DNA of 64,000 nt from Candidatus Magasanikiibacteriota bacterium. Lineage in GTDB: Bacteria; Patescibacteriota; Patescibacteriia; Magasanikbacterales; UBA922. Position numbers and translations under genes: made by a program. The DNA lies in assembly GCA_018650645.1 (NCBI GenBank), contig JABIFP010000020.1:8385-72384 (forward strand), read 5' to 3'. A model generated the notes under the pieces. The model was not told where the DNA came from, made no database searches, and worked only from the letters and a program-made list of their open reading frames with translations. Shown here one piece after another: positions 25,856 to 55,792 of the stretch (its first letter is position 1; each line of letters starts with the position of its first letter).

Positions 25856-27184
25856 ATGTATAGACAACCATACCATATTTCCCGCGGCGTTCGCATCACA
25901 ATTATGCTTTCGCTCATAAGTGCATTTTTAATTTCAGCACCTCTTTTGATCGCATACACCTCTGGATACAGATATTCGTTTGATGAAGGGCTTATTAGTA
26001 AGGGATCACTCTCTGTTACAGCCAAACCGATTGATGCCACCATTTTTGTAAATAATATTGCTATTGATCAAGAAGGCGGGCTTGAGAATAGAGACAAAGC
26101 GGCCATTAGCATGGATACACTAGCTGCTGGTATGTATGACGTTCGTATTGAGCGAGATGGATACCTTCCTTTTGAAAAAACAATCGATGTTCGAAGTAAT
26201 GAAGCCTCTTATGTCCGAGATCTTACTCTTTTTATAGATACGCAATTTGAACAAGTAGAAGACGTGTCTTCTTACGATTACGTACAGCTCACCAAACAGG
26301 CTCCAGCACTTCTTCTGCAAGAAGGAGCGACGTGGCACACGAAGTTGCCTGGGCAGGGTGCGTCGCACAGACAAGGAAAGTTTGCTGACCCTGTGATTTT
26401 ACACACACACCCATCACTGCAAGCAGCCGTGCTGTTAGATACCAGCAATGCACCGTCTTCTACGCGAGCAGTAGTTGCCGGGTTTAACGGATTGCAACCA
26501 ACCGCATATACCATTCCGACAGCACTTACAGATACTGCTGATGTCCATTGGAGCGGCAATAGTGACACACTCTATGTACGTGCAAGTTCAACAGTATATG
26601 CAATTTCTCATGATTCATTTACGCAAGTTGGTGTGACAACAGCAACTGAGTGGTTTGTTGATGTGAATAACGTACTCTGGGAGCAGCAAGAGCGCACACT
26701 GGTGCAGACTAAAGACAAAGAGACAACTCGATTTTTACCAAGCACAACAGTACAACCAATTGATGTAAACGAAGCACGCGTTATTTTACAGGGCGCGAAA
26801 AGTGTTTATGTAAGTTTGCATACTGCGTCAGAACAAATCACACAAATTCCCACGCAAGGGCTCTTGTTTGATGCCGATAAAAACTTGTGGTACACCTGGA
26901 GCGAATTTGAGGTATTTTCAATCGATGGAAATGGAACCATTAAACCACTCTACAGATCTTCTCAAGAAATTCATGACATTGCCATTTTAGATGAGTACGG
27001 AGTGATTGGGATTGCTTCTGCGAATGGCGTAAGTGCCTTTCATACTAGATACCTCACTTCTCATACACTCATTAGTGGGCAAAGCGTATCAATGATCAGC
27101 GCTGACATTGCAGGTAGAGTACTCTATGCAATTGAGGAAAATGCAGAACAAGGAACCAAGTCACTCATAAAAAGAAGATACTAA
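25856..27184 (+). CDS. membrane-anchored PEGA-domain protein
   Basis: N-terminal TM helix, a PEGA-like beta segment (YDVRIERDGYLPFEKTIDV), and beta-propeller-like repeats C-terminally. The start is probably an internal Met near 25904. Confidence 0.5.
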   Translation: MYRQPYHISRGVRITIMLSLISAFLISAPLLIAYTSGYRYSFDEGLISKGSLSVTAKPIDATIFVNNIAIDQEGGLENRDKAAISMDTLAAGMYDVRIERDGYLPFEKTIDVRSNEASYVRDLTLFIDTQFEQVEDVSSYDYVQLTKQAPALLLQEGATWHTKLPGQGASHRQGKFADPVILHTHPSLQAAVLLDTSNAPSSTRAVVAGFNGLQPTAYTIPTALTDTADVHWSGNSDTLYVRASSTVYAISHDSFTQVGVTTATEWFVDVNNVLWEQQERTLVQTKDKETTRFLPSTTVQPIDVNEARVILQGAKSVYVSLHTASEQITQIPTQGLLFDADKNLWYTWSEFEVFSIDGNGTIKPLYRSSQEIHDIAILDEYGVIGIASANGVSAFHTRYLTSHTLISGQSVSMISADIAGRVLYAIEENAEQGTKSLIKRRY

Positions 27185-27213
27185 CAAAAAAAGAGGCTGT
27201 TGCCTCTTTTTTT
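27185..27213. terminator. bidirectional intrinsic terminator (A7, AGAGGC tgtt GCCTCT, T6)
   Basis: Perfect hairpin between the convergent PEGA-domain gene and leuS. Confidence 0.6.
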
Positions 27214-27223
27214 GTTTGCTGAT

Positions 27224-30200
27224 TTATACAACAATATTCACAATTCTTCCTGGAATATATATCTGTTTCTTTGGCTCTTTCCCGTCAATAAAGCGTTGCA
27301 CATTCTCTTCTGCATGTGCAGCCTCAAATGCTTGCGCTTCTGTTGCATCAGCTGGCAACGTAATGGTTCCGCGCAATTTTCCGTTTACTTGTACAGCTAC
27401 GGTTAGCGTGTCTTCTACTAATTTTGATTCGTCATATGCTGGCCACTCTGCCAGTGTTGCAGACCCTTCTTTACCAAGCACTTCCCACAGCTCTTCTGCC
27501 ATATGCGGTGCATATGGTGCTAGGATACTTACAAATGTGGCAAAATCATCTTTTGCAATTTGCGTTTCTTTAGTAAATGCATTTGCACATTCCATCATTG
27601 CTGCAATTGCTGTGTTAAATTGCAACTCGGCAGTATCCCCTGTTACCTTTTTAATTGTCTTATGCAGTATACGATTCATTTCTTCTGTACCCGTTTCGGC
27701 AAGCTTTTCTTGCAGCTTCCACACTTTTTCTAGAAATCTTCTTACTCCTTTTACTCCACCGGTGTTCCAGGCTTTTGCCTGATCTAGTGGCCCCATGAAC
27801 ATTTCATACATGCGGACAGTATCTGCTCCGTATTCATTCACCACATCTGTTGGGTTAATCACATTCCCCCACCGCTTACTCATTTTTCTCCCATCTTCAC
27901 CGGAAATAAGTCCCTGATGACGGTTTACTTTAAACGGCTCATCAAAATCGATAAGTCCTTCATCAAAAAGCACCTTTGTGAAGAATCGTGAATACAGGAG
28001 ATGTCCGTTTACATGTTCTTCACCACCCAAGTAGAAATCGATTGGCATCCATTTTTTGAGCTGTTCTTTTGAAGCAAACGCCTCATCATTTTTTGGATCT
28101 AAGTATCTGAAGAAGTACCAGCTAGAACACATAAACGTGTCGAGTGTATCTACCTCTCTCTTCCATCCTTTTCCGTATTTTTCTTCTACCCCATCTTGGA
28201 ATGATGGTGAGTAGTTGAGTGGTGATTGTCCTGTTGGTTTGAAGTCAACATCGTCTGGAAGGATGACTGGGAGGTCTTGTATTGTTAGTGGCCGAAGCCC
28301 AGAAATGAGCGCTTCATCAAGGATGACTTGTTCCTCATTACCATCAAAATGTGGTTTATTTGATTGCGCATAGACCAGCCGAGCATCCAAATCTGTTGCC
28401 ATTTTTTCTAAGTGTTCTTTTTTTATAATTGGGAATGCATTATCTCCAATTATTGTAATTTCAGAACACAACGCTTTTACTTTTTCTGTATCAAACTCCC
28501 ACGTTGTACTGTCTTCTACAACTGTTCTTTTTTTGTCATTGAATTCTGGAACATATACGGGATCCACAAAACACAGCTTTGCAATATTTTTTCCAGATTG
28601 TTCTAACATTCTGAGAGCCACTGCTGCACCGTGACTTTGAGAAACAATAACCGTATTCTCATCAAGTGTAACTTGCTCTAGTGCAAATGTAGCCTGTTCA
28701 TCTGCTTTTGGTTTTTCTGTATTTGGAAGGTCAAATGCCTTGACTATATGACCCTGCAATTCAAGTTCTTGTTTCAACCATGGCCAGAAAATAGCTTCTT
28801 TACCAGAACCGTATCCATGCAAACATACATACAACCTTTTTTTGTTTTTTTCTTCTTCATTTGAAATAACTGGAATTGGCGCACCCCAAAATCGTTGTCT
28901 TGAAACTGACCAATCGCGGAGTTTGTATTGTGTTTTCTTTTTACCAATGTTTTTTTCTTCAAGCCATTCGAACATTCTTGTTTTTGCTTCTTGTGTTGTT
29001 AGATCATTGAGGAATTCCGAGTTTACGACAACACCTTCCCCACTATATGTGCTTGCTTCCACAAACATATTCCATGCAAGAGCGTGTGGATCCCAATTAA
29101 TATCTGTCGCAACCTTTTTCTTATCTTGCCAATACATTTCATGCCTGCCCTCATCAACTTCACATGAGACACGCTCCTCATCTGTCAGCTGTACATGAAA
29201 CCAAACAGAACCTGTTATTTGGTTCTTATTCTTAGTAATGCGATATCCCTGAGCATTAAAATGTTCAATAAATCGGGACCTAATGACATAATTCACATAT
29301 CCACTTTCCTCTTTTATTTCTTTTGTAAGAGCTTCTTCAATACTTTCACCTTCTTCTACACCCCCACCAACAAAATGTACACCGTCGACATCTCTCAAAA
29401 GTAGAAATTTTCCACCATCAGAATTTTCAATGATTACATCTATACATCTACGATTAAGTGTCTCGACTCCATCTTTCATCGCTTTCTTTCCTGTAAAAGC
29501 TACTGACGGAGCAACAACCTGTCTAATCTCCAACCCAAACTTCTTCGCAAACGCAAAGTCCCTCTCATCATGCGCCGGAACGGCCATGATTGCTCCGGTT
29601 CCGTATGTTGCAAGCACGTAATCAGCAATCCAAACGGGAACTTCTTCCCCATTAGCTGGATTTATCGCTTTTACTCCTTTTAGTTCTACTCCTGTTTTTT
29701 CTTGATCTACTTGTCTATCTAAATTCGATTTCTTTTCCGTTGCATGAACATATGCCTGCACTTCATCCCAATTTTTAATTGTTTCTTGCAAGCCCTGTAC
29801 CAAAGCATGTTCTGGCGCAAGTACCATATAGGTTGCTCCAAAAAGCGTATCTGGTCGTGTAGTAAATACGGTAATGTTTTCTTCAGTATCTTTCACGCTA
29901 AACTGCACCTCAGCTCCTTCGCTTCTTCCAATCCAATTTCTTTGCCGAGTAATTGTTTCCTGTGGCCAATCGACTTTATCAAGGTCGTCAATCAACCTAT
30001 CTGCGTAATCTGTTATTTTTAAATACCATTGCTCCATTTCTTTTTGCAAAACTGGAGTATCACAACGTTCACAAGCACCTTCTACAATTTGTGCATTCGC
30101 CAACACTGTTTTACAACTATCACACCAATTCACTGCCTGATTTTTTCTATACGCAAGTCCTCTTTTATACATCAAAAGGAAAAACCACTGTGTCCATTTA

Positions 30201-30601
30201 TAATAATCAGCATTATGTGATCCTACTTCTCTCTCCCAATCGACTGAAATACCGAGCTGCTTAATTTGACTGCGGAAGTTTTCAATTGCCTTATCTGTAT
30301 TAATCCGCGGATGCACATTTGTTTTAATCGCATAATTTTCTGCAGGGAGTCCAAAAGAATCCCACCCAATCGCTTGAAGTACCTTTTTTCCTGTCATTCT
30401 CTGATACCGCGCAAAAATATCACATGCGGTGTATACCTCTGCATGTCCAACATGAAGCCCACTCCCAGAAGGATACGGAAGTTGCGGCAGTATATACATC
30501 TTATTTTCTGACGTTGCGTCTACCGGTGTCTTATAGAGCTTCTGCTCTTCCCAACGTGCTTGCCACTTCTTTTCGATTTCCTTCGGATTATATTGACTCA
30601 T
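27224..30601 (-). CDS. leuS: leucyl-tRNA synthetase, 1125 aa, with two inserted extra domains (NUDIX and alpha/beta serine hydrolase)
   Basis: Full class-I LeuRS framework: HVGH, CP1 editing domain (TTRPDTLFGATY...AHDERDFAFAKKFGL), KMSKR and a C-terminal anticodon-binding region. About 330 extra residues make up two inserted modules. Confidence 0.9.
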   Translation of the reverse strand: MSQYNPKEIEKKWQARWEEQKLYKTPVDATSENKMYILPQLPYPSGSGLHVGHAEVYTACDIFARYQRMTGKKVLQAIGWDSFGLPAENYAIKTNVHPRINTDKAIENFRSQIKQLGISVDWEREVGSHNADYYKWTQWFFLLMYKRGLAYRKNQAVNWCDSCKTVLANAQIVEGACERCDTPVLQKEMEQWYLKITDYADRLIDDLDKVDWPQETITRQRNWIGRSEGAEVQFSVKDTEENITVFTTRPDTLFGATYMVLAPEHALVQGLQETIKNWDEVQAYVHATEKKSNLDRQVDQEKTGVELKGVKAINPANGEEVPVWIADYVLATYGTGAIMAVPAHDERDFAFAKKFGLEIRQVVAPSVAFTGKKAMKDGVETLNRRCIDVIIENSDGGKFLLLRDVDGVHFVGGGVEEGESIEEALTKEIKEESGYVNYVIRSRFIEHFNAQGYRITKNKNQITGSVWFHVQLTDEERVSCEVDEGRHEMYWQDKKKVATDINWDPHALAWNMFVEASTYSGEGVVVNSEFLNDLTTQEAKTRMFEWLEEKNIGKKKTQYKLRDWSVSRQRFWGAPIPVISNEEEKNKKRLYVCLHGYGSGKEAIFWPWLKQELELQGHIVKAFDLPNTEKPKADEQATFALEQVTLDENTVIVSQSHGAAVALRMLEQSGKNIAKLCFVDPVYVPEFNDKKRTVVEDSTTWEFDTEKVKALCSEITIIGDNAFPIIKKEHLEKMATDLDARLVYAQSNKPHFDGNEEQVILDEALISGLRPLTIQDLPVILPDDVDFKPTGQSPLNYSPSFQDGVEEKYGKGWKREVDTLDTFMCSSWYFFRYLDPKNDEAFASKEQLKKWMPIDFYLGGEEHVNGHLLYSRFFTKVLFDEGLIDFDEPFKVNRHQGLISGEDGRKMSKRWGNVINPTDVVNEYGADTVRMYEMFMGPLDQAKAWNTGGVKGVRRFLEKVWKLQEKLAETGTEEMNRILHKTIKKVTGDTAELQFNTAIAAMMECANAFTKETQIAKDDFATFVSILAPYAPHMAEELWEVLGKEGSATLAEWPAYDESKLVEDTLTVAVQVNGKLRGTITLPADATEAQAFEAAHAEENVQRFIDGKEPKKQIYIPGRIVNIVV
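28307..28849 (-). other. alpha/beta serine hydrolase (PF06821/YdeN/RBBP9-like) domain inserted in LeuRS (residues about 585-765)
   Basis: LYVCLHGYGSGKEAIFWPWLKQEL N-terminus typical of the Ser_hydrolase family, and a nucleophile elbow VSQSHGAA. Inserted after DWSVSRQRFWGAPIP and before the KMSKS half. Confidence 0.6.
29042..29479 (-). other. NUDIX hydrolase domain inserted in LeuRS (residues about 375-520)
   Basis: Nudix box GGGVEEGESIEEALTKEIKEESGY (Gx5Ex7[KR]ExxEExGY) located between the CP1 editing domain and the ...VVVNSEFLNDL segment. Confidence 0.7.
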
Positions 30602-30703: not shown

Positions 30704-30921
30704 CAACCGTCTGTGTGAACTGCAATAATCGCTATTGCGCTCACACAAACACCTGTATGATGATCATACCCCAACATTTATGGCCTGAATAGACTGCATG
30801 CAATATGTAATTTACTCTGACCATAAATGAAAGGTAAATTGATGCGACATACAATGGGCTAGAGCCCACACGATGAGATGAGGTGAACAGTCAGCCTCTC
30901 TCCTCCTCACCTGCAGTCTTT

Positions 30922-30975
30922 CGCCCGGTCATTCTGACCACGCGGCGAAGGCTGCGTGATTGGAATGACCGGGCG
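30922..30975 (+). repeat. perfect 13-bp inverted repeat (CGCCCGGTCATTC ... GAATGACCGGGCG) in the leader of the CSD-like gene
   Basis: Arms at 30922-30934 and 30963-30975 separated by 28 nt, just upstream of the Shine-Dalgarno sequence and ATG at 31004. Confidence 0.5.
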
Positions 30976-31003
30976 AAGGAACGCCCGGCGAACGGAGGAC
31001 GAG

Positions 31004-37770: not shown

Positions 37771-40446
37771 TTGATATTTATTATGCTCAAAAAGATCTCT
37801 TTTTTCATACTCTCATTCATTGGGTGTATGATCCTGATAACACCAACGTTTGCGGCGTCTACTTATTTTTCTGATGAATTCGATACCGTTGCGCATGCAG
37901 AACTAAGCACTCGCGTTCCAGACACAGGAACAAGTTGGTCACAACTTATTGATAATGGACGAGACCTCTATGTGCGTTCTTATAATGACCATGTTACTAC
38001 TGAATCGAATGGAAGCAATGTTGGGACACTCTATCAAGCAAATGGAACATATGACAGTGCGGATTACGAAATTCTTGCACGTATTGCTTTTTCTGGTGGA
38101 GACAGTAACTACACCCGTTCATTAGCTGTGCGTATTCAAGATGCTAGCAACATGTATTTGCTTAGAGCAGGATCTGGAGCATCCGGACTTGCCATTTATA
38201 AACGAACAGCAGGTACTTGGAGTTTACTCGGATCTACCAGCTATACGCCAACAGGTGATCTCTCTGTTCCATATAATGATGCCGGAGATATTATTGGACT
38301 GCGTGCTGAAGGAAATGACCTTAGCGCACTTGTAAATGGTACCGTGCAGCTTACGGTTACCGATTCAGATCACACGCTTGCAGGTTCTGCTGGTATTGGT
38401 ACGGGATATGTAAATATCTCAACAGATGATTCTGGAACAGGAGTTGGTATTGATAATGTAATTGTTCAAGATTTAGTTGATGACACAGCGCCAACCGTCT
38501 CATATTATAACCCAGCTGATAATGCTACAGGTGTTTCCGCAACATCTACCTTTGAAATTTCCTTTGATGAAGCGATTGTTACCAGTACTGGAAATATCTA
38601 TCTCTACAAAACAAGTGACGACTCGCTTATTGAAACGATTGATATTGAAAGCGCGCTTGTTACTGCTTCAAGCACTACAGCACTTGTCATTGATCCTGCT
38701 GCTGTGCTGATTAGTCAAACTGAATATTACTTTTTTATTGATGCAACGGCAGTAGATGATACCTCTGCCAATAGCTACGCTGGAATAACAGTAAGCACCA
38801 CATGGAGCTTTACTACAGCCGACACCACTGACCCAACACTGTTATATGTTAATCCGGCAGATAACGCAACGGGAGTTGGTGTTACCTCAACGTTTGAAAT
38901 TGCCTTTGATGAAGCAATCGCCACAAGTACCGGGAACATCTACATATATAAGACAAACGATAACTCACTTATTGAAACAATTGATATTGAGGGAGCACTT
39001 GTTACCGCTTCTAGCACAAACGCTCTCATCATTGACCCCGTAGCGACATTAGACAGCAATACAGAATATTATTTCCTTATTGATATCACTGCAATTGATG
39101 ACAGCGCTGGAAACAGTTATGCCGGAATTGCATTAAGCACTGCATGGAGCTTTACTACAACCGATACCGCGGCACCAACTATTTCTGGTGCATCTCCTAC
39201 CGGCGAGCAAGATGTTGGCACAGCCACCGTTACTGTTTCTGTTACAACAGACGAAGCTGCAACGTGCAAATATGCCGCCAGCGCAGGAGCTGCATTTGCT
39301 GCTAAAACAGTCTTCTCTTCTACCGGAGCAACAAGCCACACCACATCTGTATCTACTGAGGATGACACAAGCTACTCCTATTATGTGAGTTGCCAAGACG
39401 GTTCAACAAATGAGAGTACAGAAACAACTATTACTTTTTCCATTGCGGCTCCAGTAACTGGTGGCGGTGGATCTGCCCCTGCACCGGCTCCTTCTGTTGG
39501 TGTGGGTACGAGTGACGCATTTATTCCAATGGGGACTACAAAAGATATTGGACCTGTATCAGTGGAACCACTCAATATTCTAACGCATATCAACTCCCCT
39601 GCTGAATTTGAAGCCCCGGTAAGTGGTAGTGGTGCAATGCAACCTCATAGTTTTGAAATAACCGATTTTGATCTATTTGAAAACATCATTACATTAAAAA
39701 TTCAATCTGAACCGCAGTTTGTTACACTTTCTTTAAATGAAACGGCATCTGTTGATCTTGATGGAGATGGTATTGCTGATGTGTCACTTACATTTGAAGA
39801 TGTGGTAACAAATCGAGCTGAAATTACATTGCAAGTGCTTACCGAAGAATCAGAACTAACCATACCCGTTGAAGAGCTACCAAGTACACCGGTATCCCCT
39901 ACTCCAGTTGTCCCAAAAGAGCCAGCGGTATTTACTTTTACCAGAAACCTCTCACTTGGCATGCAAGGAACTGATGTACAAGAGCTGCAAAAGTATTTGA
40001 ATACGAAGGGATTCGCCGTTGCACAGGCAGGATACGGATCGGCTGGAAATGAAACAACCTACTTTGGTAATGCTACCAAATCGGCTCTTATCAAATATCA
40101 AACGGAGTACCAATTGCCAGCATACGGATACTTTGGCGATTTAACGCGCACGTTTATCATTAGTGGTGACGAACCACTCGCGATAAAGCAAACTGTACAA
40201 CCCAAAACGACCTGGTTGTTTACAAAAGATTTACGCCTTGGAGATCAAGATAGTGAAGTGCAATTACTGCAGCAATATTTAAATGCTCATGACTATATTG
40301 TCGCTGATAGTGGATACGGCTCGCCAGGAAACGAGACAACCTATTTCGGTGCAGCAACGCAAGCAGCTCTTATCAAGTATCAAGAGCAATACCGTTTGCC
40401 AGCATATGGATACTTTGGGCCGCTGACAAGATCGAGTGTAAAGTAA
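37771..40446 (+). CDS. large secreted cell-surface protein with tandem Ig-like (BIG-type) domains and two C-terminal peptidoglycan-binding domains
   Basis: Signal peptide, two full plus one partial repeat of about 113 aa (PTVSYYNPADNATGV...WSFTT), then two PG_binding_1-like modules (LSLGMQGTDVQELQKYLN... and LRLGDQDSEVQLLQQYLN...). Confidence 0.65.
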   Translation: MIFIMLKKISFFILSFIGCMILITPTFAASTYFSDEFDTVAHAELSTRVPDTGTSWSQLIDNGRDLYVRSYNDHVTTESNGSNVGTLYQANGTYDSADYEILARIAFSGGDSNYTRSLAVRIQDASNMYLLRAGSGASGLAIYKRTAGTWSLLGSTSYTPTGDLSVPYNDAGDIIGLRAEGNDLSALVNGTVQLTVTDSDHTLAGSAGIGTGYVNISTDDSGTGVGIDNVIVQDLVDDTAPTVSYYNPADNATGVSATSTFEISFDEAIVTSTGNIYLYKTSDDSLIETIDIESALVTASSTTALVIDPAAVLISQTEYYFFIDATAVDDTSANSYAGITVSTTWSFTTADTTDPTLLYVNPADNATGVGVTSTFEIAFDEAIATSTGNIYIYKTNDNSLIETIDIEGALVTASSTNALIIDPVATLDSNTEYYFLIDITAIDDSAGNSYAGIALSTAWSFTTTDTAAPTISGASPTGEQDVGTATVTVSVTTDEAATCKYAASAGAAFAAKTVFSSTGATSHTTSVSTEDDTSYSYYVSCQDGSTNESTETTITFSIAAPVTGGGGSAPAPAPSVGVGTSDAFIPMGTTKDIGPVSVEPLNILTHINSPAEFEAPVSGSGAMQPHSFEITDFDLFENIITLKIQSEPQFVTLSLNETASVDLDGDGIADVSLTFEDVVTNRAEITLQVLTEESELTIPVEELPSTPVSPTPVVPKEPAVFTFTRNLSLGMQGTDVQELQKYLNTKGFAVAQAGYGSAGNETTYFGNATKSALIKYQTEYQLPAYGYFGDLTRTFIISGDEPLAIKQTVQPKTTWLFTKDLRLGDQDSEVQLLQQYLNAHDYIVADSGYGSPGNETTYFGAATQAALIKYQEQYRLPAYGYFGPLTRSSVK
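38482..39162 (+). repeat. tandem repeat of about 340 bp, two copies (38482-38820 and 38821-39162), about 85% identical, encoding the Ig-like domains
   Basis: Direct nucleotide and protein repetition within the surface-protein gene. A third partial unit starts at 39163. Confidence 0.7.
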
Positions 40447-41224: not shown

Positions 41225-42514
41225 GTGCTGAAACTGCTAGATTCAACCTTGGGGCTGCTTGGAATAAAGCGGCTCAACAAGATGTTCGCTCACAGCGGGA
41301 TCTTCATGCTCGTCGGATTGGCGTGCACACAAGTTCTCCGCTACACCGCGCCGGAAATGCTCGATGGGATTCTACAAGCAGAGTTCCTGAGCAATCACTA
41401 CTTCGGCCACGATCACGGAGATGGACACTACGTCCTCTCGCTGCCGTTCCTCGTGAACGACTTCTTCATTGCCTTCTTCTTTGGCATTGCCTTCAAGGAG
41501 GTGAAAGAAGCGATCTTCCTGCCGGGCGGCGCCCTCCAGGGTAAAAAGGCATACGTGCCGATCTCTGGAACGCTTGGTGGTGTTCTTGGACCTGCGGGAG
41601 TCTTCCTGCTGGCCGTGGCACTCCTTGGGAAGTGGACGTTGATGTGGCGAGGGTTCGCCATCCCCATGGCGACGGACATCGCGTTCACCTACCTGTTCGC
41701 GAAAATGATCTTCCCGGACGTTCAGCAAGCTGACGGCACAATGAAGAAGCATCGCATGGTCTCATTCGGGCTGGCCCTGGCCATCCTGGATGACCTGATC
41801 GGTATGGCGATGATCGCCTTCTTCTACAACGACGGCATCGACATGTTCTGGCTAGGACTCTTCGGGGCGACGATCCCCCTCGGGATCCTGATGAACCGAC
41901 TGAAGGTGCAAGGCTGGGGCTGGTACATTGTGCTCCTCGGCCTGCCCGGAATCTACTTCTTGTTCCACTCGGGTTTGCACCCGTCGCTGGGACTCGCTGT
42001 AGCGGTTTTCTGCATGCCCACTAAGGGGCGTGACGAAGACGGGATAGTGGCAGAAGGGACAGCGGAAAACGTGCACCATTCGGCTACGGCTGACAGGTAT
42101 GAACATCAGACGGCCGTGCCCGTGGAGTACATCCTTGGCGCGTTCGCCTTTGTGAATGCCGGTGTCAACATGGTGCAGGGCTTCAACACCCTCACCTTCG
42201 TGGTGCTTGGCTCGCTGATTATTGGCAAGGGCCTGTTCATCTGGGCCTTCACACGCATTGCGCAGAGGTTCTGGGAGTTCGAGGCAAGCAGCAGCGAAGT
42301 CATGACCCTGGCACTCGCGGCGGGAATTGGCTTCACGGTCAGTCTCTTCGTTGCCAGCTTGGCATACGCCCCTGGGGCTCTCCAAGATGGCGCAAAGATC
42401 GGTGCAGCGCTCTCGCTCATTGCGGGGCCCATGGCGATGGTCTACGCACGCATGTTCCATGTTGGACGATGGAGTCGGGAAATCGATTCCACGCGGCGCG
42501 CTGTGCTCCAGTAG
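41225..42514 (+). CDS. nhaA: Na+/H+ antiporter NhaA, in a GC-rich islet (about 60% GC)
   Basis: WRGFAIPMATDIAF and LAILDDLIGMAMIAFFY match the NhaA TM4/TM5 signature regions. The start may be the GTG at 41225 or the ATG at 41282. Confidence 0.75.
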   Translation: MLKLLDSTLGLLGIKRLNKMFAHSGIFMLVGLACTQVLRYTAPEMLDGILQAEFLSNHYFGHDHGDGHYVLSLPFLVNDFFIAFFFGIAFKEVKEAIFLPGGALQGKKAYVPISGTLGGVLGPAGVFLLAVALLGKWTLMWRGFAIPMATDIAFTYLFAKMIFPDVQQADGTMKKHRMVSFGLALAILDDLIGMAMIAFFYNDGIDMFWLGLFGATIPLGILMNRLKVQGWGWYIVLLGLPGIYFLFHSGLHPSLGLAVAVFCMPTKGRDEDGIVAEGTAENVHHSATADRYEHQTAVPVEYILGAFAFVNAGVNMVQGFNTLTFVVLGSLIIGKGLFIWAFTRIAQRFWEFEASSSEVMTLALAAGIGFTVSLFVASLAYAPGALQDGAKIGAALSLIAGPMAMVYARMFHVGRWSREIDSTRRAVLQ

Positions 42515-43186: not shown

Positions 43187-43885
43187 ATGATACAAGAAGC
43201 CCCTTCGGGATTCCTCCTTATTGATAAACCAACCGATTGGACAAGCCATGATGTTGTTGGGTATCTGCGGGGAGTGACTGGTATTAGAAAAATTGGACAC
43301 GCCGGCACACTTGATCCATTTGCCACAGGGCTTCTTATTGTTGCTGTGAGTAGGGCTGCAACAAAACGAATCGATGAATTTCAGGGCATGACCAAAATAT
43401 ATGAAACGACTCTTCAGTTTGGTTCTTCAAGTGATACGCAGGATTTGACTGGTGTTCTTTCTGAAGTTGCTCCACTAGATGACATAACACTCGATGAATC
43501 CGTAGTACTAAAAACACTTCTAGCGTTTACCGGAACAATTCAGCAGATTCCCCCAATGTATAGCGCAAAAAAAGTTGGTGGCAAGAAATTATACGAACTC
43601 GCCAGAGAAGGAAAAGAAATTGAGCGCCAACCGGTTGAGATTAATATAGATACGCTAGAACTGCTCGGCATTGATACAGAGAAAAAAATGCTATCCCTGC
43701 GCGTTGTCTGTTCAAAGGGAACCTACATCCGCACACTGTGTCATGATATTGGAGCTGCGCTTGGGTTTGGTGGGTATTGTGCTACTCTTAGAAGAACGCA
43801 TATTGGTGAATTTTCTGTAGAACAAGCCGTAGAACCAAAATCTTTAGAAAAAACATCCTGGCAAAAACGATTACTTGCGCTGTAG
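43187..43885 (+). CDS. truB: tRNA pseudouridine-55 synthase
   Basis: GFLLIDKP...HAGTLDPFATGLL catalytic Asp motif. No PUA extension. Confidence 0.9.
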   Translation: MIQEAPSGFLLIDKPTDWTSHDVVGYLRGVTGIRKIGHAGTLDPFATGLLIVAVSRAATKRIDEFQGMTKIYETTLQFGSSSDTQDLTGVLSEVAPLDDITLDESVVLKTLLAFTGTIQQIPPMYSAKKVGGKKLYELAREGKEIERQPVEINIDTLELLGIDTEKKMLSLRVVCSKGTYIRTLCHDIGAALGFGGYCATLRRTHIGEFSVEQAVEPKSLEKTSWQKRLLAL

Positions 43886-43892
43886 TTTGCGT

Positions 43893-43959
43893 GTACTCCG
43901 CTGATACGCAATAGCAAACCGATGTGCCTCATCTCTGAGCGCTATACGCTCTTTTTTAT
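43893..43959 (+). repeat. 67-bp direct-repeat copy A, a duplicate of the uvrC 3' end
   Basis: gtactccgctgatacgcaatagcaaaccgatgtgc...tctgagcgctata.gctcttttttat matches 46998-47064 (the real uvrC C-terminal codons) with about 3 mismatches. Confidence 0.7.
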
Positions 43960-44007
43960 TTATCTCTACTTTGTAGTATACTGAACGCAATATATTTACT
44001 TGTTTCT

Positions 44008-44166
44008 ATGGCATCTATTGCACAACAAATCGCTGATCGAAAAGCACTTTACCGCAAAAACATGGGCCAATTGAAAAAAAGGCGCACGTTACTTCTAAAA
44101 CGATTAGCAAAAAAAATTAGCAGTCATAGTTTGCAAAAAACAAAATCATCTATTGAAAAAATATAA
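44008..44166 (+). CDS. candidate 52-aa basic small protein (not in the 60-aa ORF track)
   Basis: ATG...TAA ORF MASIAQQIADRKALYRKNMGQLKKRRTLLLKRLAKKISSHSLQKTKSSIEKI immediately upstream of the coiled-coil gene. No clear Shine-Dalgarno sequence. Confidence 0.2.
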   Translation: MASIAQQIADRKALYRKNMGQLKKRRTLLLKRLAKKISSHSLQKTKSSIEKI

Positions 44167-44175
44167 CTACTTCTT

Positions 44176-46926
44176 ATGGCCTCACCAGAAGAAAACAGCG
44201 TTCATGAAGCTGAAAAATCAAGAAGTGAAGCTGCTGAAGCTACGCCACAAACCTCAGAGGACTTTCGTGAAGCATTAGCCGCAGACATGGGCGTGACCAC
44301 CCAAACATTTGAGCATCTCAAAACTGATGCTGAGCTAGCAGGACTTACTCCAGAAGAAATTGCGGAGTATGGTGCTGCGCTGGATCAGATTCATGAGCAG
44401 ATGAGAAAAGAGACCGAACGGCTAACTGCAGAGTTAGCGGATCTGCATGAACAGCTAAAGGCAGAAAAAGATGCTGCTGACGCTCTGAAGATACTAGACC
44501 TGGATACATCAGAAACAGAAGCCGGTATCTCAGAAAAAGAAGAGTTAACACGTGAACTTGAGCAAACACTTGAAAAAGCAGCACAAAATGCAGCCAAGGT
44601 AACAGAAAACAAAGAGCGGCTTACCGAAATGGAAAGAGGAAAAGTACGAAATATTGAAAAATTTGCAGAACTTGAGCGCGCTCTGCCACGCGCTGGTATT
44701 GATGGTCCCCAGTTAATCCGAAAAGCGTTAGATGCAGATTTTTTAGAAGACTATGCTGATACCCATATTACTCAGCTAGATGCGTACGCTAAAACACTCA
44801 CAGAAAAAAATAAGGCGGCACTTACAGCCCTGCAAGAGAAACATGCAGCGACAGAAGCAGAACGTGTCCAGAAATTTACGGCTTCTGAAGATGTACAGAA
44901 TTTGAAAAGCGCTCTCAAAGCGAAACAAGAAGCCTTCGCAAAGATGCATGCTCAACTTACGCCAGAGCAAATAGCAGCGGTTGAGACAGCGGTTGCCGCG
45001 CTTCAAAAAAACATTGAAACACAAGAGCAGCAGGAGCTGCAAGCATACAAAGATACACACGCAGCGCCCCTTCAGGCTGCAAAACATGAGGCCTTACGTG
45101 CATTCATTAAAAACACTATTCCCGATTCTGAAATTGAGCGGTTAATTGAGACAGGTGAATTACAATCTGATGAATTAGCGCACAGAATTGGAACACTTAT
45201 GGCCCCAGAAGCCATAGAGAATTTTGATCAAAAAATGGCAGTTTTGCTTCCAGAAAAAGTCATTGAGGGTATTCTAGATCAAATTCCTCCTGGACATTAT
45301 AGGGACTCTAGAACTCCTTACAAAATGTCTCACGTCTTATACAACTATCCTGCATTTTTGGAAGAGAAATTGCGACGATCTGAGGAAGGCAATCGTAGTA
45401 TCCAACAATTTATGGATGCATTTGCGCAATTGAACCAGGAATTCAAAGAGGCTGAAGCGTTGTTGATAGATCTACCCAGCAGAGATCGAATATTGAAAAG
45501 TAATGCATTACTCAAAGAACTATGGCCAAAGCTACATAAAGAGCTACAGGCAGCACATGGTTTATCTAGGGACAATATTCCCAATTTAAACCATTATCTT
45601 GACGGAGATATTGAAAAAGCATGGGAAGAATCCGATTCCGGAGTAGGACCAGCTTACTCAACAAGACAGGTGCAGGCTGAGATAGAACAGGCAATAGCAC
45701 TGGGAGTCAAGGCATATCAGGACCGCTGGTGGCATCCAGAAAAGGATGACAGAAAAAAACTTGCCGAGGCAAATGAGAAACAGCGTTCGGATAGCTATGA
45801 TCCACACTATAACTTAACAACCGTTCAGGAATACGAAGCAGACAGACAAGAGATTGGTAGCATAGACGCTACAATTGATGCTACATTCACCAAGGCAAAT
45901 AAGGTGGCCGCTGAAGCCGCTGCTGCATCGGAGCGAATTCAAACAGAGGGTCGGCAAAAGATGGAAGAAATCACAGCCAAGTTCGCAAAAATTCAAGAAA
46001 AGATGGAGAGCAGTGATACTACTGTTGAAGACATGTATGCGGCCCAAAAATGGATTGAGCATGCAACACGTCAGATAACAGACGATATCAAAAAAGATGA
46101 AATGACTACAAAGCAGGATCTGCTTAAAAAGCATCCTATCATCTCTCAGCATGAGCTACGAACACGTGTAGATGAGCTCATAACATTAGGCAAAAGCACA
46201 AAATCAGAACTTGCCGCTGAATACGAGAGCGAACGGTGGAAAGCAGAGGCCCTTGTGTCTCAAGCATTTCCTCTACTTCCTGAAGATTTTTTTAGCGCAT
46301 TTGATAAAGCCAGTTCCAGTGCGGCTAGAGACGCGAAAGAGAAAATTAAAGAAAGAAACCGGGAAATTGAACGTGATAAGCAAAGAGCTATTGAGGAAAG
46401 TGAACGAAAAGCAAAGCAAGAAGAACGCGATGAAAAGAAGCGAATTTGGAATCAAAATGTCAATCAAAATGAAAAAAAGACACTGCTACATGAAATAAAT
46501 CGCTATTCTTTTTCCCAACAAAGAGATCTCGAGGATTTTAAAGAAAAATATGAACCTAAACTAAAGCGTGCTGCTGATTTTATCTCGAGATTGAAAACCG
46601 CAAAAACTAAATTCTCTTTATTTACTAGAACTATAAACCTCCATGATTTAGGTGGAACTGAGGTGGGTATAACCAAAAAAAATGTCGATGATTTCATCTT
46701 ACGAGCTATACAAAATCAGGCTGCTATCATTGAAGAAATGAAACAAGAGAAAAATGCTGTATTGATTACACGTGACGAACGAGTTAAAAAAACTTTAGAA
46801 CAGACAAAAAATAAGTTCGCATCAGAGGAAGGATACGAAGAAGCAAAAAAGCAAGCGTATGAAAATCACAGGGGTAATAGATCAAGATTGGAGAAAGCTT
46901 TGCTTGAATTTATAGATGCAAATTAA
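44176..46926 (+). CDS. 916-aa highly charged (E/K/A-rich) coiled-coil protein, no TM helix or signal peptide, function unknown
   Basis: Continuous ORF with heptad-like periodicity, no enzymatic motif, flanked by the uvrC-end direct repeats. Confidence 0.55.
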   Translation: MASPEENSVHEAEKSRSEAAEATPQTSEDFREALAADMGVTTQTFEHLKTDAELAGLTPEEIAEYGAALDQIHEQMRKETERLTAELADLHEQLKAEKDAADALKILDLDTSETEAGISEKEELTRELEQTLEKAAQNAAKVTENKERLTEMERGKVRNIEKFAELERALPRAGIDGPQLIRKALDADFLEDYADTHITQLDAYAKTLTEKNKAALTALQEKHAATEAERVQKFTASEDVQNLKSALKAKQEAFAKMHAQLTPEQIAAVETAVAALQKNIETQEQQELQAYKDTHAAPLQAAKHEALRAFIKNTIPDSEIERLIETGELQSDELAHRIGTLMAPEAIENFDQKMAVLLPEKVIEGILDQIPPGHYRDSRTPYKMSHVLYNYPAFLEEKLRRSEEGNRSIQQFMDAFAQLNQEFKEAEALLIDLPSRDRILKSNALLKELWPKLHKELQAAHGLSRDNIPNLNHYLDGDIEKAWEESDSGVGPAYSTRQVQAEIEQAIALGVKAYQDRWWHPEKDDRKKLAEANEKQRSDSYDPHYNLTTVQEYEADRQEIGSIDATIDATFTKANKVAAEAAAASERIQTEGRQKMEEITAKFAKIQEKMESSDTTVEDMYAAQKWIEHATRQITDDIKKDEMTTKQDLLKKHPIISQHELRTRVDELITLGKSTKSELAAEYESERWKAEALVSQAFPLLPEDFFSAFDKASSSAARDAKEKIKERNREIERDKQRAIEESERKAKQEERDEKKRIWNQNVNQNEKKTLLHEINRYSFSQQRDLEDFKEKYEPKLKRAADFISRLKTAKTKFSLFTRTINLHDLGGTEVGITKKNVDDFILRAIQNQAAIIEEMKQEKNAVLITRDERVKKTLEQTKNKFASEEGYEEAKKQAYENHRGNRSRLEKALLEFIDAN

Positions 46927-46950
46927 TAAACCAACCTGTAATTCAATAAT

Positions 46951-46980
46951 AAAAACACCAGACCACTTCTCTGGTGTTTT
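46951..46980. terminator. bidirectional intrinsic terminator (ACACCAG ... CTGGTGT)
   Basis: Hairpin between the coiled-coil gene stop and the uvrC stop, with T-runs on both strands. Confidence 0.5.
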
Positions 46981-48250
46981 ATTTCTTTAATTGCCTTGTA
47001 CTCCGCTGATACGCAATAGCAAACCGATGTGCTTCGTCTCTGAGCGCTATAAGCTCTTTTTTATGAGAAGCGACCCAGGCCACAAAGCTTGGGTTTTTTG
47101 ATCCTAAAACAAACTCATTTTTCTTTCTTTCTGCCCCTTTTGCAATGCCCACAACAGGAATCGCAATACGCAAATATGTGAGCACTTTTTTTGCCCTATT
47201 CACTTGTGGCAATCCCCCATCAACCATCACCACAGCAGGATACTGCCATTCGGGATGCCTAAATCTTCTCAGAAGTACCTCTTCTATGCAATCCACATCG
47301 CTCTGCCCTTCTACCGTCTTGATTTTAAATTTTCTATACTGACTTTTTGCCTGTTCGCCGCCAACTGAGACAACCATAGAACCAACTTTCCCAGTATTAC
47401 CAAGATTTGAAATATCGTACCCTTCCACCCTGAGTTCATGCGCATGTTCTCCCATGTCGTCTTGCACAAAGCTTTTGTTAAGGAGCGCCATATCATGGAT
47501 ACGTTCAAGTGCGTGAAGCTGATTGCGCAAACGTGCAGCTTCTTCAAACTGCTCCTTTTTTGCAGCACCTGCCATACGCTTTTTTATATTGCCTAGCAAT
47601 CGCTTCTTTCCTCCCTTAAGTAATGTGATAAGTGGCATAATAACATCTCGCTTGTATGCTGCAGCAGAAATGTCTCCTGTGCACACACCCAAACACTGCT
47701 TCATTTGCCTATACAAACATGGCCGCTTTGCCTCTGGTTTGCATGTAGAGATGGTAAACAGCCTGCGCAGTAATCTGAGTGCCTGTTTGGTATTAAGCCC
47801 TGGAAACGGACCAAACACATGTGAAAATTGTTTTTGCTGCGTTTTACTCAGCAATTGAAATTGGTGAAAGCGGAACGCCTCAAGCCTGGGGTAGTCATCA
47901 TTAGTAATAACTAAATAATTCCAGCTTTTATTGTCTTTTCCAAGCACATTATATGCTGGCTGATATTTTTTGATCCAATTTGCCTCTGCAATAATCGCTT
48001 CAAGTACTGAATCTGTTTCTTTATATGCTATTTTTGTGACCGTCTGCATCATTTGCTCAATAGGCCGCCTCGTTTTTGGCCCAGTAAAATAGCTCCCCAC
48101 TCGTGAACGTAGTGATGTTGCCTTCCCCACGTAGACAAGCTCTTTTTTTGCATTATAAAAAACATAGATACCTGGTGCATCCGGAAACGTCTTCGCCTTG
48201 TTTTTTAGTGCTTCTTGCGTCATACTCTTATGTACTATAGTAACACGCAC
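46979..48250 (-). CDS. uvrC: excinuclease ABC subunit C, short form lacking the C-terminal (HhH)2 domain
   Basis: GIY-YIG N-terminus (GIYVFYNAKKELVYVGKATSLRSR), a UvrBC-interaction region and an RNase H-like endonuclease domain ending in RDEAHRFAIAYQR. Length is 423 aa. Confidence 0.8.
   Translation of the reverse strand: MRVTIVHKSMTQEALKNKAKTFPDAPGIYVFYNAKKELVYVGKATSLRSRVGSYFTGPKTRRPIEQMMQTVTKIAYKETDSVLEAIIAEANWIKKYQPAYNVLGKDNKSWNYLVITNDDYPRLEAFRFHQFQLLSKTQQKQFSHVFGPFPGLNTKQALRLLRRLFTISTCKPEAKRPCLYRQMKQCLGVCTGDISAAAYKRDVIMPLITLLKGGKKRLLGNIKKRMAGAAKKEQFEEAARLRNQLHALERIHDMALLNKSFVQDDMGEHAHELRVEGYDISNLGNTGKVGSMVVSVGGEQAKSQYRKFKIKTVEGQSDVDCIEEVLLRRFRHPEWQYPAVVMVDGGLPQVNRAKKVLTYLRIAIPVVGIAKGAERKKNEFVLGSKNPSFVAWVASHKKELIALRDEAHRFAIAYQRSTRQLKK
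46998..47064 (+). repeat. 67-bp direct-repeat copy B (the authentic uvrC 3' coding end)
   Basis: Partner of 43893-43959. Confidence 0.7.
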
Positions 48251-51110: not shown

Positions 51111-51494
51111 ATGTTCAAAGAATTCAAAAAATTCGCAATCAAAGGAAATGTCATGGATATGGCAGTCGGTATCATTATTGGTGCGGCGTTTGGAAAAATT
51201 GTCAGCTCATTTGTTGCTGATGTTGTCATGCCACCAATTGGGTATATTTTAGGTGGAATCGATTTATCTCATTTACATATTGTACTTAAGGATGCAACAG
51301 AAACAGCCGCAGCCATTACCTGGAATTATGGTGCATTCTTTAATACCATAGTCGATTTTGTCATCATTGCTTTTGCCGTATTTATGATGGTCAAACAAAT
51401 GAATAAATTGCAAAAAAAGGAAGAAGCAAAACCAACAGCACCACCAGAGGATGTATTACTGCTAAGAGAAATTAGAGATGCGCTGAAAAAATAG
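51111..51494 (+). CDS. mscL: large-conductance mechanosensitive channel
   Basis: [30 protein letters not shown] signature N-terminus with two TM helices. Confidence 0.9.
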
Positions 51495-51502
51495 CTCAAA
51501 AC

Positions 51503-51534
51503 AAAAAACGAGGCTGTTGCCTCGTTTTTTGTTT
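51503..51534. terminator. bidirectional intrinsic terminator (A6, CGAGGC tgtt GCCTCG, T6)
   Basis: Same motif family as 27185 and 48805. Confidence 0.6.
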
Positions 51535-55718: not shown

Positions 55719-55792
55719 ATGGACATATCATAGCATGAAGAGAATAAAACAAAAAATGAGGCATATGCCTCATTTTTTGCTTACATTCGTTG

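Follow-up and report, generated by a model that had tools for sequence, protein, structure and literature searches.

Direct Repeats of the uvrC 3′ End around a Coiled-Coil Gene Cassette at the truB/uvrC Junction of a Candidatus Magasanikiibacteriota Bacterium

Introduction

What kind of event leaves the 3′ end of a repair gene in two copies, one on each side of a 3.1-kb cassette that holds a single transcription unit? The question is raised by the truB/uvrC locus of a Candidatus Magasanikiibacteriota bacterium, which lies within a 64-kb stretch of DNA that was analysed as a whole (hereafter the window, to which all coordinates refer). The genomes of Candidate Phyla Radiation (CPR) bacteria are very small, and the gain and loss of lineage-specific genes among them are poorly documented; the present locus is a concrete case with clear boundaries. 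An earlier note, made from the sequence of the window, described direct repeats of about 67 bp with about three mismatches, placed the duplicated uvrC end directly after the truB stop codon, and took the arrangement for the footprint of site-specific integration or of a duplication-insertion event, with a decayed or satellite-type element or a recombination scar as possible sources. In this report, we describe the repeat, the cassette and the corresponding loci of relatives, and weigh the events that could have produced them. The most likely cause appears to be a recent gain, or re-gain, of the cassette driven by homology.

Structure and Authenticity of the Repeat

The two copies of the repeat occupy positions 43892–43959 and 46997–47064, with a start-to-start distance of 3105 nt. 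Pairwise alignment, repeat search and direct count are concordant in giving 65/68 identity (95.6% over 68 nt), which confirms the earlier description to within a nucleotide, and the left copy begins 6 nt past the truB stop codon (43883–43885). The mismatches fall at 43928, 43931 and 43947 in left-copy coordinates, and a perfect block of 36 nt (43892–43927, equal to 46997–47032) lies inside the repeat. Both edges of identity are sharp: across the ACA|CGC boundary the agreement falls from 36/36 to 8/15 (hand count on codons), and at the other edge it ends abruptly at 43959|43960. A repeat search of the 64-kb window returned this pair as the sole long, high-identity dispersed repeat, the remaining families being in-gene tandem repeats (73–79% identity) or terminator hairpins. 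No known RNA family reached its gathering score between 43000 and 48500, and there is no tRNA target at the repeat, the closest tRNA gene being more than 12 kb away.

Seven of the contigs obtained from ENA and JGI assemblies contain the two copies, each copy with mismatches of its own. All contigs retrieved via the exact 916-aa or TruB sequence of this lineage match the window at 99.98% identity or more. Logan contigs built at k=31 end within the 36-nt perfect block (L044 stops at 43921, and L008 covers 43898–47026), as expected for a genuine two-copy repeat. The two-copy contigs with their private mismatches, together with this pattern of breaks, rule out an assembly artefact as the source of the repeat.

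The Cassette and Its Flanking Genes

On the left, the cassette is bordered by truB (43187–43885, plus strand; 232 aa; Pfam TruB_N and TruB_C_2), the last gene of a conserved block. On the right lies uvrC (46979–48250, minus strand), which is of the short CPR type without an HhH domain (Pfam GIY-YIG, UVR and UvrC_RNaseH_dom) and measures 414 aa if the ATG at 48223 is taken as the start, as public gene calls do, and 423 aa with the GTG at 48250; the UvrC proteins of relatives are of equal length. The right copy of the repeat (46997–47064, minus strand) is a functional part of this gene and its genuine 3′ end, reading …KKELIALRDEAHRFAIAYQRST-RQLKK-stop in translation. The last 18 nt of uvrC, encoding R-Q-L-K-K-stop (46979–46996, minus strand), lie beyond the repeat and within the inserted segment, as a replacement tail. 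At the nucleotide level this tail is identical at 14/18 positions to the uvrC tail of the nearest relative, L018, and at 8/15 to the left tail described below (hand count, codon alignment). The uvrC stop codon sits within a bidirectional terminator hairpin of 11 bp (46952–46980), which is common to uvrC and the 916-aa gene, and a homologous hairpin also trails uvrC in L018.

Between the copies there is a complete transcription unit, which begins with a promoter box of the kind typical of the genome and ends at the terminator, and the GC content of the cassette (0.42–0.44) is like that of its flanks. The promoter-like box, TTTGTAGTATACT (extended −10; 43970–43982, plus strand), lies 10 nt past the left copy and matches the TTTGTGnTATACT-type boxes found upstream of many genes in the window; L018 has TTTGTGCTATACT upstream of its homologous coiled-coil gene. 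The box is followed by a basic ORF of 52 aa (44008–44166, plus strand), which is called as a gene in public assemblies and is of uncertain reality; it has no family match, is absent from L018 and shows no significant similarity to the coiled-coil gene. The idea that it is a relic of the start of that gene (MASIAQQ-IAD against MASSAEQRIAH in L018) was rejected, as local alignments were no better than those of shuffled sequences, and the layout of −10 box plus ATG, which is common to many genes in the window, also weighs against it. A second candidate relic of the uvrC end at 43971–43993 was likewise discarded (p ~0.06 to 0.2).

The main content of the cassette is an ORF of 916 aa (44176–46926, plus strand), encoding a charged, all-alpha orphan protein of coiled-coil type. 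It has no match in Pfam, PHROG, NCBIfam, PADLOC or PDB sequences, and among 1.84 billion representatives its only homologue is P0122, the product of an 837-aa gene of L018. The AlphaFold model consists entirely of helices, at a low-confidence pLDDT of 57.8, and a Foldseek search of it against the PDB gave no fold match (best E 0.8). Apart from this ORF and the one of 52 aa, the cassette contains no gene.

The Ancestral Junction and a Probable Displaced uvrC Tail

Comparison with relatives indicates that, in the ancestral arrangement, truB and uvrC were adjacent and convergent. L039, L040, L041 and L047 share a conserved Trx-IF2-PPase-…-truB block, and in relatives this block meets uvrC head-on. 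The junction is intact in L039, a distant relative (TruB 65% identical), in which the truB and uvrC stop codons are 16 nt apart; the single-copy junction that had been anticipated for relatives without the gene thus exists, in a distant relative. Three further loci (L038, L040 and L041) carry unrelated inserts at the junction, without such repeats. Among close relatives no empty site was found, the closest, L018 (UvrC 82% identical), being occupied by a homologous coiled-coil gene at the same site, and no empty-site variant occurs among the retrieved contigs that span truB to the cassette, all of which carry the filled form. The relatives were found via protein look-ups; scans of genomes and metagenomes with UvrC gave only relatives of at most 56% identity, without synteny.

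L018 has no repeat and no left copy, and the tail and terminator of its uvrC are orthologues of those on the right-hand side in the window. The earlier note had named precisely this pattern, the gene without the repeat, as one that would speak against its reading. A possible decayed relic of the uvrC end upstream of the L018 gene scored 35, a value equalled in 11/2000 dinucleotide shuffles; other, unrelated intergenic regions with terminators did just as well against the uvrC end (1/500, 0/500 and 19/500), and the signal was rejected because it comes from terminator-like A/T runs.

The left copy (43892–43959, minus strand) repeats the uvrC codons …KKE(L>R)IALRDEAHRFAIAYQRST in a non-functional form, and its position coincides exactly with a truB/uvrC junction of the L039 type. 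In the uvrC frame it reads …KKERIALRDEAHRFAIAYQRST-RKLQRK-stop in translation, such that the copy, the 6-nt spacer and the last codons of truB together encode a UvrC-like tail, …YQRST-RKLQRK-stop. The part beyond the repeat, R-K-L-Q-R-K-stop (43871–43891, minus strand; translation), crosses the spacer TTTGCG and runs antisense to the last four codons and stop of truB, a 15-nt overlap. It fits the tail consensus of 12 relatives, R-[KR]-[LI]-x(0-4)-stop, which was set after looking; the pattern is fitted in both states, the right copy leading to RQLKK-stop and the left to RKLQRK-stop. As a genome-wide chance expectation, 49 of the 127,940 positions show the pattern (0.04%). With the truB end fixed, it is possible solely with a spacer of 6 nt, and a random spacer of that length then yields it with P = 1%. 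The chance of a family-typical left tail hence lies in the range of about 0.04–1%, in an argument that rests on 6 nt and a post hoc consensus. Given the ancestral convergent junction and the in-frame, family-typical tail, the left copy has the appearance of the original uvrC end, displaced by the entry of the cassette.

Age of the Repeat

The two copies differ at 3/68 sites, and the left copy agrees with the right at 8/9 of the sites that separate this lineage from L018; compared with L018, it has eight window-specific states in common with the right copy and two private changes. The fourfold degenerate sites of uvrC are saturated relative to L018 (49/137 identical, d ~1.46). Judged from these divergences, the split from L018 is older than the repeat by a factor of at least about 20. 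As it is far younger than the gene that the two lineages share, the repeat cannot be the footprint of the first arrival of that gene at the locus. Since L018 has the gene without the repeat, a displaced uvrC end would mean that the lineage of the window had either lost the cassette and gained it again or acquired it separately. With the coiled-coil gene in two lineages only, this history is poorly constrained.

Origin of the Arrangement

Our preferred account is that a cassette lacking a recombinase recombined into the 3′ end of uvrC, leaving the original end beside truB, and we give it a probability of about 0.45, somewhat short of even odds. Before the event, truB and uvrC would have met directly, tail to tail, at a site that was presumably empty until then. 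The cassette would have comprised its own promoter, the small ORF, the 916-aa gene, the bidirectional terminator and the 18-nt replacement uvrC tail, and would have entered by ordinary homologous (RecA-type) recombination, for which the highly conserved uvrC end would have provided the homology. A circular copy of the cassette could have gone in by a single crossover, or a cassette already flanked by the repeat could have been imported from a close relative. The insertion, or the last such exchange, would be recent relative to the age of the coiled-coil gene at the locus. The 36-nt perfect block exceeds the minimum length usually quoted for RecA-dependent exchange, and the cassette could probably be lost again: recombination between the 68-nt copies would excise it, and the remaining uvrC would be intact and end in the old tail (…STRKLQRK), the expected empty-site junction being …CTTGCGCTGTAGTTTGCG + 68-nt repeat + GAGAAGCGACCCAGG… and the expected circle junction …TTTCTTTAATTGCCT + 68-nt repeat + TTATCTCTACTTTGTAGTATACT….

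Insertion of the Campbell type yields the same A-B-A layout, in which the repeat is the shared homology and no dedicated recombinase takes part, and when it is reversed the gene regains its original end, here a reading frame that is still intact; in contrast to such systems, neither a circular form nor a donor nor an empty-site variant has been observed here. Homology-facilitated illegitimate recombination during natural transformation, for which the conserved uvrC end would offer a suitable anchor, was considered as another route and set aside. Its usual topology deletes the recipient DNA between anchor and joint, whereas here part of the anchor appears to be duplicated, and the joint would have to fall inside the anchor to give the structure of the window. 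A bolder version of the preferred account, which we regard as distinctly unlikely, holds that the cassette is reversible, the 916-aa unit entering and leaving the uvrC end by homologous recombination or being re-imported from siblings. Either state would give an intact UvrC, with the tail RQLKK or RKLQRK, and periods in the empty state would keep the displaced end and its tail under selection; such selection would account for the authentic, young look of the left copy despite the age of the gene at the locus.

The serious rival to homology-driven entry, to which we assign a lower probability that makes it unlikely in its own right, is a scar of local duplication: the gene came down vertically from a common ancestor with L018, and 68 nt of the uvrC end were later copied, in this lineage alone, 3.1 kb away into the short spacer between truB and the promoter. 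The copying could have been by a templated patch or by template switching, or in two steps, with a tandem duplication of the cassette and the subsequent deletion of one of the two units. That L018 has the gene and no repeat is readily accommodated in this way, as are the youth of the left copy, which bears the synonymous states of its own lineage, the orthology of the right tail (14/18 nt) and terminator to those of L018, and the absence of mobility genes. Like the remnants of tandem duplications, moreover, the left copy is own-genome sequence in direct orientation a few kilobases away and absent from the nearest relative, and a tandem duplication containing the whole cassette must end inside uvrC, because the uvrC stop codon lies in the shared terminator. 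Such remnants, however, are expected at arbitrary positions, unrelated to gene structure, whereas here an authentic-looking gene end has been recreated at the ancestral junction. A scar leaves as coincidence the distance of 6 nt from the truB stop codon, the uvrC orientation and the tail-recreating frame (about 0.04–1%), as well as the match to a junction of the L039 type. In addition, direct reading of the sequence reveals no useful microhomology at either junction, and the tandem-duplication route takes two events with precise end points.

A site-specific element whose integrase was lost, or was supplied in trans, would be of the CIME or satellite type, with the 68-nt copies as attL and attR. 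The insertion geometry seen by the earlier note, into the uvrC 3′ end with a gene end on both sides, is upheld, and the locus shares with genomic islands, ICEs, IMEs, prophages and CIMEs the direct repeats of a target-gene 3′ end around a discrete cargo, a replacement end, borne by the element, that keeps uvrC intact, and an empty junction in a (distant) relative. CIMEs retain their att sites and have lost the genes for integration and transfer (PMC5704250); att-like repeats without such genes fit this definition as a formal match only. Against these likenesses, no recombinase, integrase or transposase was detected, either in the module or among the ORFs of at least 150 aa across the 64-kb window, which extends the earlier statement that no integrase is present. 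No cognate ICE/IME or integrase turned up in the window, the loci of relatives, or viral or plasmid collections; of the genome itself, this covers the 64 kb of the window, which come from a contig of 407 kb. A search for the coiled-coil protein in phage or plasmid contexts, which had been proposed earlier, gave no matches, and neither the cargo nor the repeat core has relatives among phages, plasmids or viral contigs (IMG/VR). Unlike the cargo of islands, ICEs, IMEs and prophages, that of the cassette is a host-like orphan gene, with a composition like that of the flanks, and both members of its family sit at the truB/uvrC locus, in L018 without att-like repeats; the other inserts at the junction in relatives lack such repeats as well. 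The insert is also only 3.1 kb long, with one transcription unit, no related functional element is known, and a 68-nt repeat with a 36-nt perfect block should be long enough for ordinary homologous recombination. Assembled contigs that span the interval show the integrated form only, and no donor or circular form of the cassette is known. A self-mobile, site-specific or satellite element, decayed or otherwise, is thus not supported; we consider the site-specific origin improbable.

Least probable of all is an ancient insertion in the common ancestor with L018, after which the left copy was kept similar by gene conversion or by a co-opted function, candidates for which are a truB terminator or a 3′-UTR segment antisense to the uvrC mRNA. 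One insertion would then account for the gene in L018. The left copy does contain, directly 3′ of truB, a terminator-like hairpin (GAGCG-CTATA-CGCTC followed by T6; 43937–43957, plus strand), in which the mismatch at 43947 (C in the left copy, A in the right) gives a stem of 5 bp rather than 4 bp; the corresponding place in L018 is taken by an unrelated terminator hairpin, and the spacer TTTGCG can pair with CGCAA inside the copy. The hairpin may act as a terminator, but it is weak (−6.9 kcal/mol, z −2.3), and the copy was not kept in L018, which gives no evidence of conservation. Gene conversion, moreover, cannot maintain the 6-nt spacer, for which there is nothing equivalent at the right copy and which still reads R-K despite saturated divergence, and it is unlikely that a 68-nt pair would be homogenised for so long without ever deleting the intervening 3 kb.

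Implications

At this locus, a whole transcription unit lies inside the end of an essential-type repair gene, with a replacement tail that keeps the gene intact and what looks like the original end still recognisable next door, and the same convergent truB/uvrC junction bears different inserts in different lineages. Should the arrangement be only a duplication scar, att-like repeats such as these would be no evidence of mobility. If homology-driven gain is correct and the event is reversible, repeats of gene ends without an integrase can mark accessory cassettes, and automated island finders that depend on integrases would miss them. Either way, the finding bears on annotation and changes no paradigm. 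If the reversible reading is true, CPR genomes, poor in mobile elements, would have a simple way to hold genes of presence/absence type at convergent junctions.

The uvrC-End Repeat and the Cassette It Encloses

The genes truB (43187-43885, plus strand) and uvrC (46979-48250, minus strand) stand tail to tail, and the 3' end of uvrC occurs twice at this locus, as direct repeats at 43892-43959 (left copy) and 46997-47064 (right copy). The repeats are 68 nt each, lie 3105 nt apart and agree at 65 of 68 positions (pairwise alignment, repeat search and direct count), with mismatches at 43928, 43931 and 43947, perfect identity across the initial 36 nt, and sharp breakpoints at both edges. The right copy is the true end of uvrC, reading …KKELIALRDEAHRFAIAYQRST on the minus strand before RQLKK-stop; the left copy begins 6 nt past the stop of truB and, read in uvrC orientation, gives …KKERIALRDEAHRFAIAYQRST. 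A repeat search of the 64-kb window returned this pair as the only long, high-identity dispersed repeat. An assembly artefact was ruled out, since both copies, with their private mismatches, are present in seven retrieved ENA and JGI contigs. The contigs fetched by exact 916-aa or TruB sequence of the lineage are all at least 99.98% identical to the window, and the k=31 Logan contigs end within the perfect 36-nt block. The duplication described in the earlier note is thus confirmed in independent contigs.

The sequence between the copies comprises one complete transcription unit plus the final 18 nt of uvrC. The unit opens with a box resembling a promoter, TTTGTAGTATACT (43970-43982), which belongs to the TTTGTGnTATACT type common upstream of window genes; then come a 52-aa basic ORF (44008-44166), a 916-aa coiled-coil ORF (44176-46926) and a bidirectional terminator hairpin of 11 bp (46952-46980). 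The GC content of this cassette is 0.42-0.44, the same as that of its flanks, and no recombinase family was found in it or in any window ORF of at least 150 aa. Neither ORF matches a family in Pfam, PHROG, NCBIfam or PADLOC. The 916-aa protein, which NCBI lists as hypothetical in a 'Candidatus Magasanikbacteria' MAG, has no PDB relative, and its predicted model consists entirely of helices at low confidence and found no fold match. When 1.84 billion representatives were searched exhaustively with phmmer, the only matches were the protein itself and an 837-aa homologue (P0122), with 34% identity over the N-terminal 360 aa (E 2e-50), 28% over the full length, and a common C-terminal KxxLFTRT motif. 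Phage, plasmid and IMG/VR collections held no relatives of the protein, and the repeat core was not found in viral contigs.

The truB/uvrC Junction in Relatives

Like every relative retrieved, this lineage has the short CPR form of UvrC, which is about 415 aa long and lacks the helix-hairpin-helix domain. The nearest relative, L018 (GCA_041294365.1; UvrC 82% aa and 76% nt, methyltransferase 57% aa, TruB C-terminus 67% aa), shares the gene order methyltransferase, uvrC, 837-aa gene (P0122), truB, and has no 52-aa ORF and no uvrC-end copy beside truB. In more distant relatives, a conserved block thioredoxin-IF2-pyrophosphatase-…-truB meets uvrC head-on, with the right side arranged differently in locus L047. 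Their gaps contain a 152-aa ORF (L040, TruB 62%), RNase Y, HU and a 66-aa ORF (L041, TruB 61%), or, in L038 (UvrC 63%), 766 nt of yet another insert. In the latter, small hydrophobic membrane proteins are encoded by GC-rich ORFs at L038 4040-4480, and a 146-nt nested palindrome (4603-4748; outer arms 17 nt, perfect inner arms 18 nt) adjoins its truB. The gap is empty in L039 (TruB 65%), with stop codons 16 nt apart, which bears out the expectation in the earlier note of an intact junction in relatives lacking the gene. No uvrC-end duplicate was found in any of these loci. The comparison indicates that truB and uvrC were ancestrally convergent neighbours; their junction is a variable spot, and the coiled-coil gene is an insert specific to the clade of the window and L018.

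Age of the Repeat and the Two uvrC Tails

Between the window and L018, only 49 of 137 four-fold degenerate uvrC sites are identical (Jukes-Cantor d ~1.46, i.e., saturated), whereas the two copies show only 3 differences in 68 nt. In a three-way comparison, L018 stands alone against both copies at 8 sites; two changes are private to the left copy, among them the replacement of a universally conserved Leu by Arg, and one is private to the right copy. The left copy therefore derives from the lineage's own uvrC or was last homogenised with it, an event estimated to be at least about 20 times more recent than the L018 split. As L018 shares the coiled-coil gene, so young a repeat cannot record the gene's first arrival. 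Despite the saturation of synonymous sites elsewhere in uvrC, the 11 codons that close the repeat (33 nt, CATCGGTTTGCTATTGCGTATCAGCGGAGTACA) show no difference between the right copy (46997-47029), the left copy and L018 (1923-1955), which could reflect codon bias, nucleotide-level constraint or past exchange.

Two observations on which copy is original point different ways. L018 has orthologues of both the 18-nt tail (AGG CAA TTA AAG AAA TAA) and the terminator that follow the right copy, the tails being identical at 14 of 18 nt (hand count, codon alignment). The left copy, in turn, continues in frame past the repeat edge as R-K-L-Q-R-K-stop, through a 6-nt spacer (TTTGCG) and then antisense to the truB stop codon and last four codons. 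This fits exactly the UvrC tail that follows YQRxx in 12 relatives, R-[KR]-[LI]-x(0-4)-stop, a pattern found at 49 of 127,940 window positions; with the truB end fixed, no spacer length other than 6 nt can produce it, and at 6 nt its probability is 1%. The left copy also lies against truB in uvrC orientation, as in the empty junction of L039. From this fit and position, the left copy with its spacer looks like a genuine former uvrC end. RQLKK and RKLQRK are similar as protein and identical at only 8 of 15 nt (hand count on codons), against 36 of 36 within the repeat up to the boundary with the tails.

Other Features of the Window

The gene of an NhaA-type Na+/H+ antiporter (41225-42514, plus strand) stands out sharply as a compositional island of 1.4 kb, with GC 0.57-0.60 against 0.40-0.45 around it, and was probably acquired by recent horizontal transfer. 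It lies between the pyrophosphatase gene and truB, where relatives carry different transporters or none. The 1125-aa leucyl-tRNA synthetase (27224-30601, minus strand) carries a NUDIX domain after its editing domain (residues 384-497), and L041 has a comparable 1141-aa enzyme with NUDIX and Ser_hydrolase matches. Two tandem units of about 342 nt (38484-39179; 73-75% identity) lie within the gene of an 887-aa Big_5/PG_binding_1 protein. Near-identical bidirectional terminator hairpins, AAAACAAAAAAnGAGGC…GCCTCnTTTTTTG, follow unrelated genes at 27169-27217, 51486-51534 and 55734-55782. A 203-aa ORF with no Pfam match is immediately preceded by a GC-rich 30-nt inverted repeat (30917-30980; 4-nt loop, arms 83% complementary), which extends into the ORF. 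In most window genes (e.g., 7235-8398, 14595-16226, 43187 and 48223) the ATG follows a TATAAT/TATACT-like box, often TTTGTGnTATACT, at a distance of a few to about 30 nt, and a Shine-Dalgarno sequence is lacking, which suggests that the mRNAs of this organism have very short leaders or none.

Origin and Significance of the Cassette

The most likely explanation, to which we give a tentative probability of about 0.45, is that a self-contained cassette recombined into the 3' end of uvrC at a direct truB/uvrC junction. Its entry would have displaced the original uvrC end, and the replacement tail that it supplied would have kept uvrC intact. Because no recombinase is present and the repeat includes a 36-nt perfect block, homologous recombination on the conserved uvrC end would be the simplest route, either by a single crossover of a circular cassette copy or by import of an already repeat-flanked cassette from a close relative. 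Since L018 has the gene without the repeat and the repeat is young, the cassette would have entered the lineage recently, for the first time or anew. If the repeats recombined with each other, the cassette would be lost and a uvrC that ends …STRKLQRK restored.

The recombination-scar option of the earlier note, here a local duplication within a locus inherited vertically, agrees with the age of the repeat and with L018, a relative carrying the gene without any repeat, a finding that the note had named in advance as counting against its reading. It would, however, turn the position, orientation, frame and tail of the left copy into coincidences at the 0.04-1% level, and we regard it as less likely, while keeping it in play. 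The insertion topology at a gene 3' end proposed in that note also stands, whereas its mobile or satellite element is not supported. A site-specific element deprived of its integrase would formally match a CIME, in which att sites are kept while integration and transfer genes are lost (PMC5704250). Yet the window has no integrase, there is no related element, the cargo is host-like, and other inserts at this junction lack repeats, so that such an origin seems improbable. Slightly less credence still is given to an ancient insertion with gene conversion or co-option of the left copy. Just 3' of truB, this copy has a weak hairpin followed by T6 (43937-43957; -6.9 kcal/mol), whose stem has 5 bp through the mismatch at 43947, against 4 bp in the right copy, which speaks for this reading; gene conversion, however, could not preserve the 6-nt spacer, and L018 has not kept the left copy.

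That repeats of a gene end frame inserts is well established for integrase-driven elements. What is new here is a variant from a CPR genome in which the cassette is recombinase-free and a single transcription unit, and in which the gene end that was displaced is still intact. The cassette is neither proven mobile nor mechanistically surprising; its relevance is to the acquisition of accessory genes by reduced genomes and to the annotation of att-like repeats.
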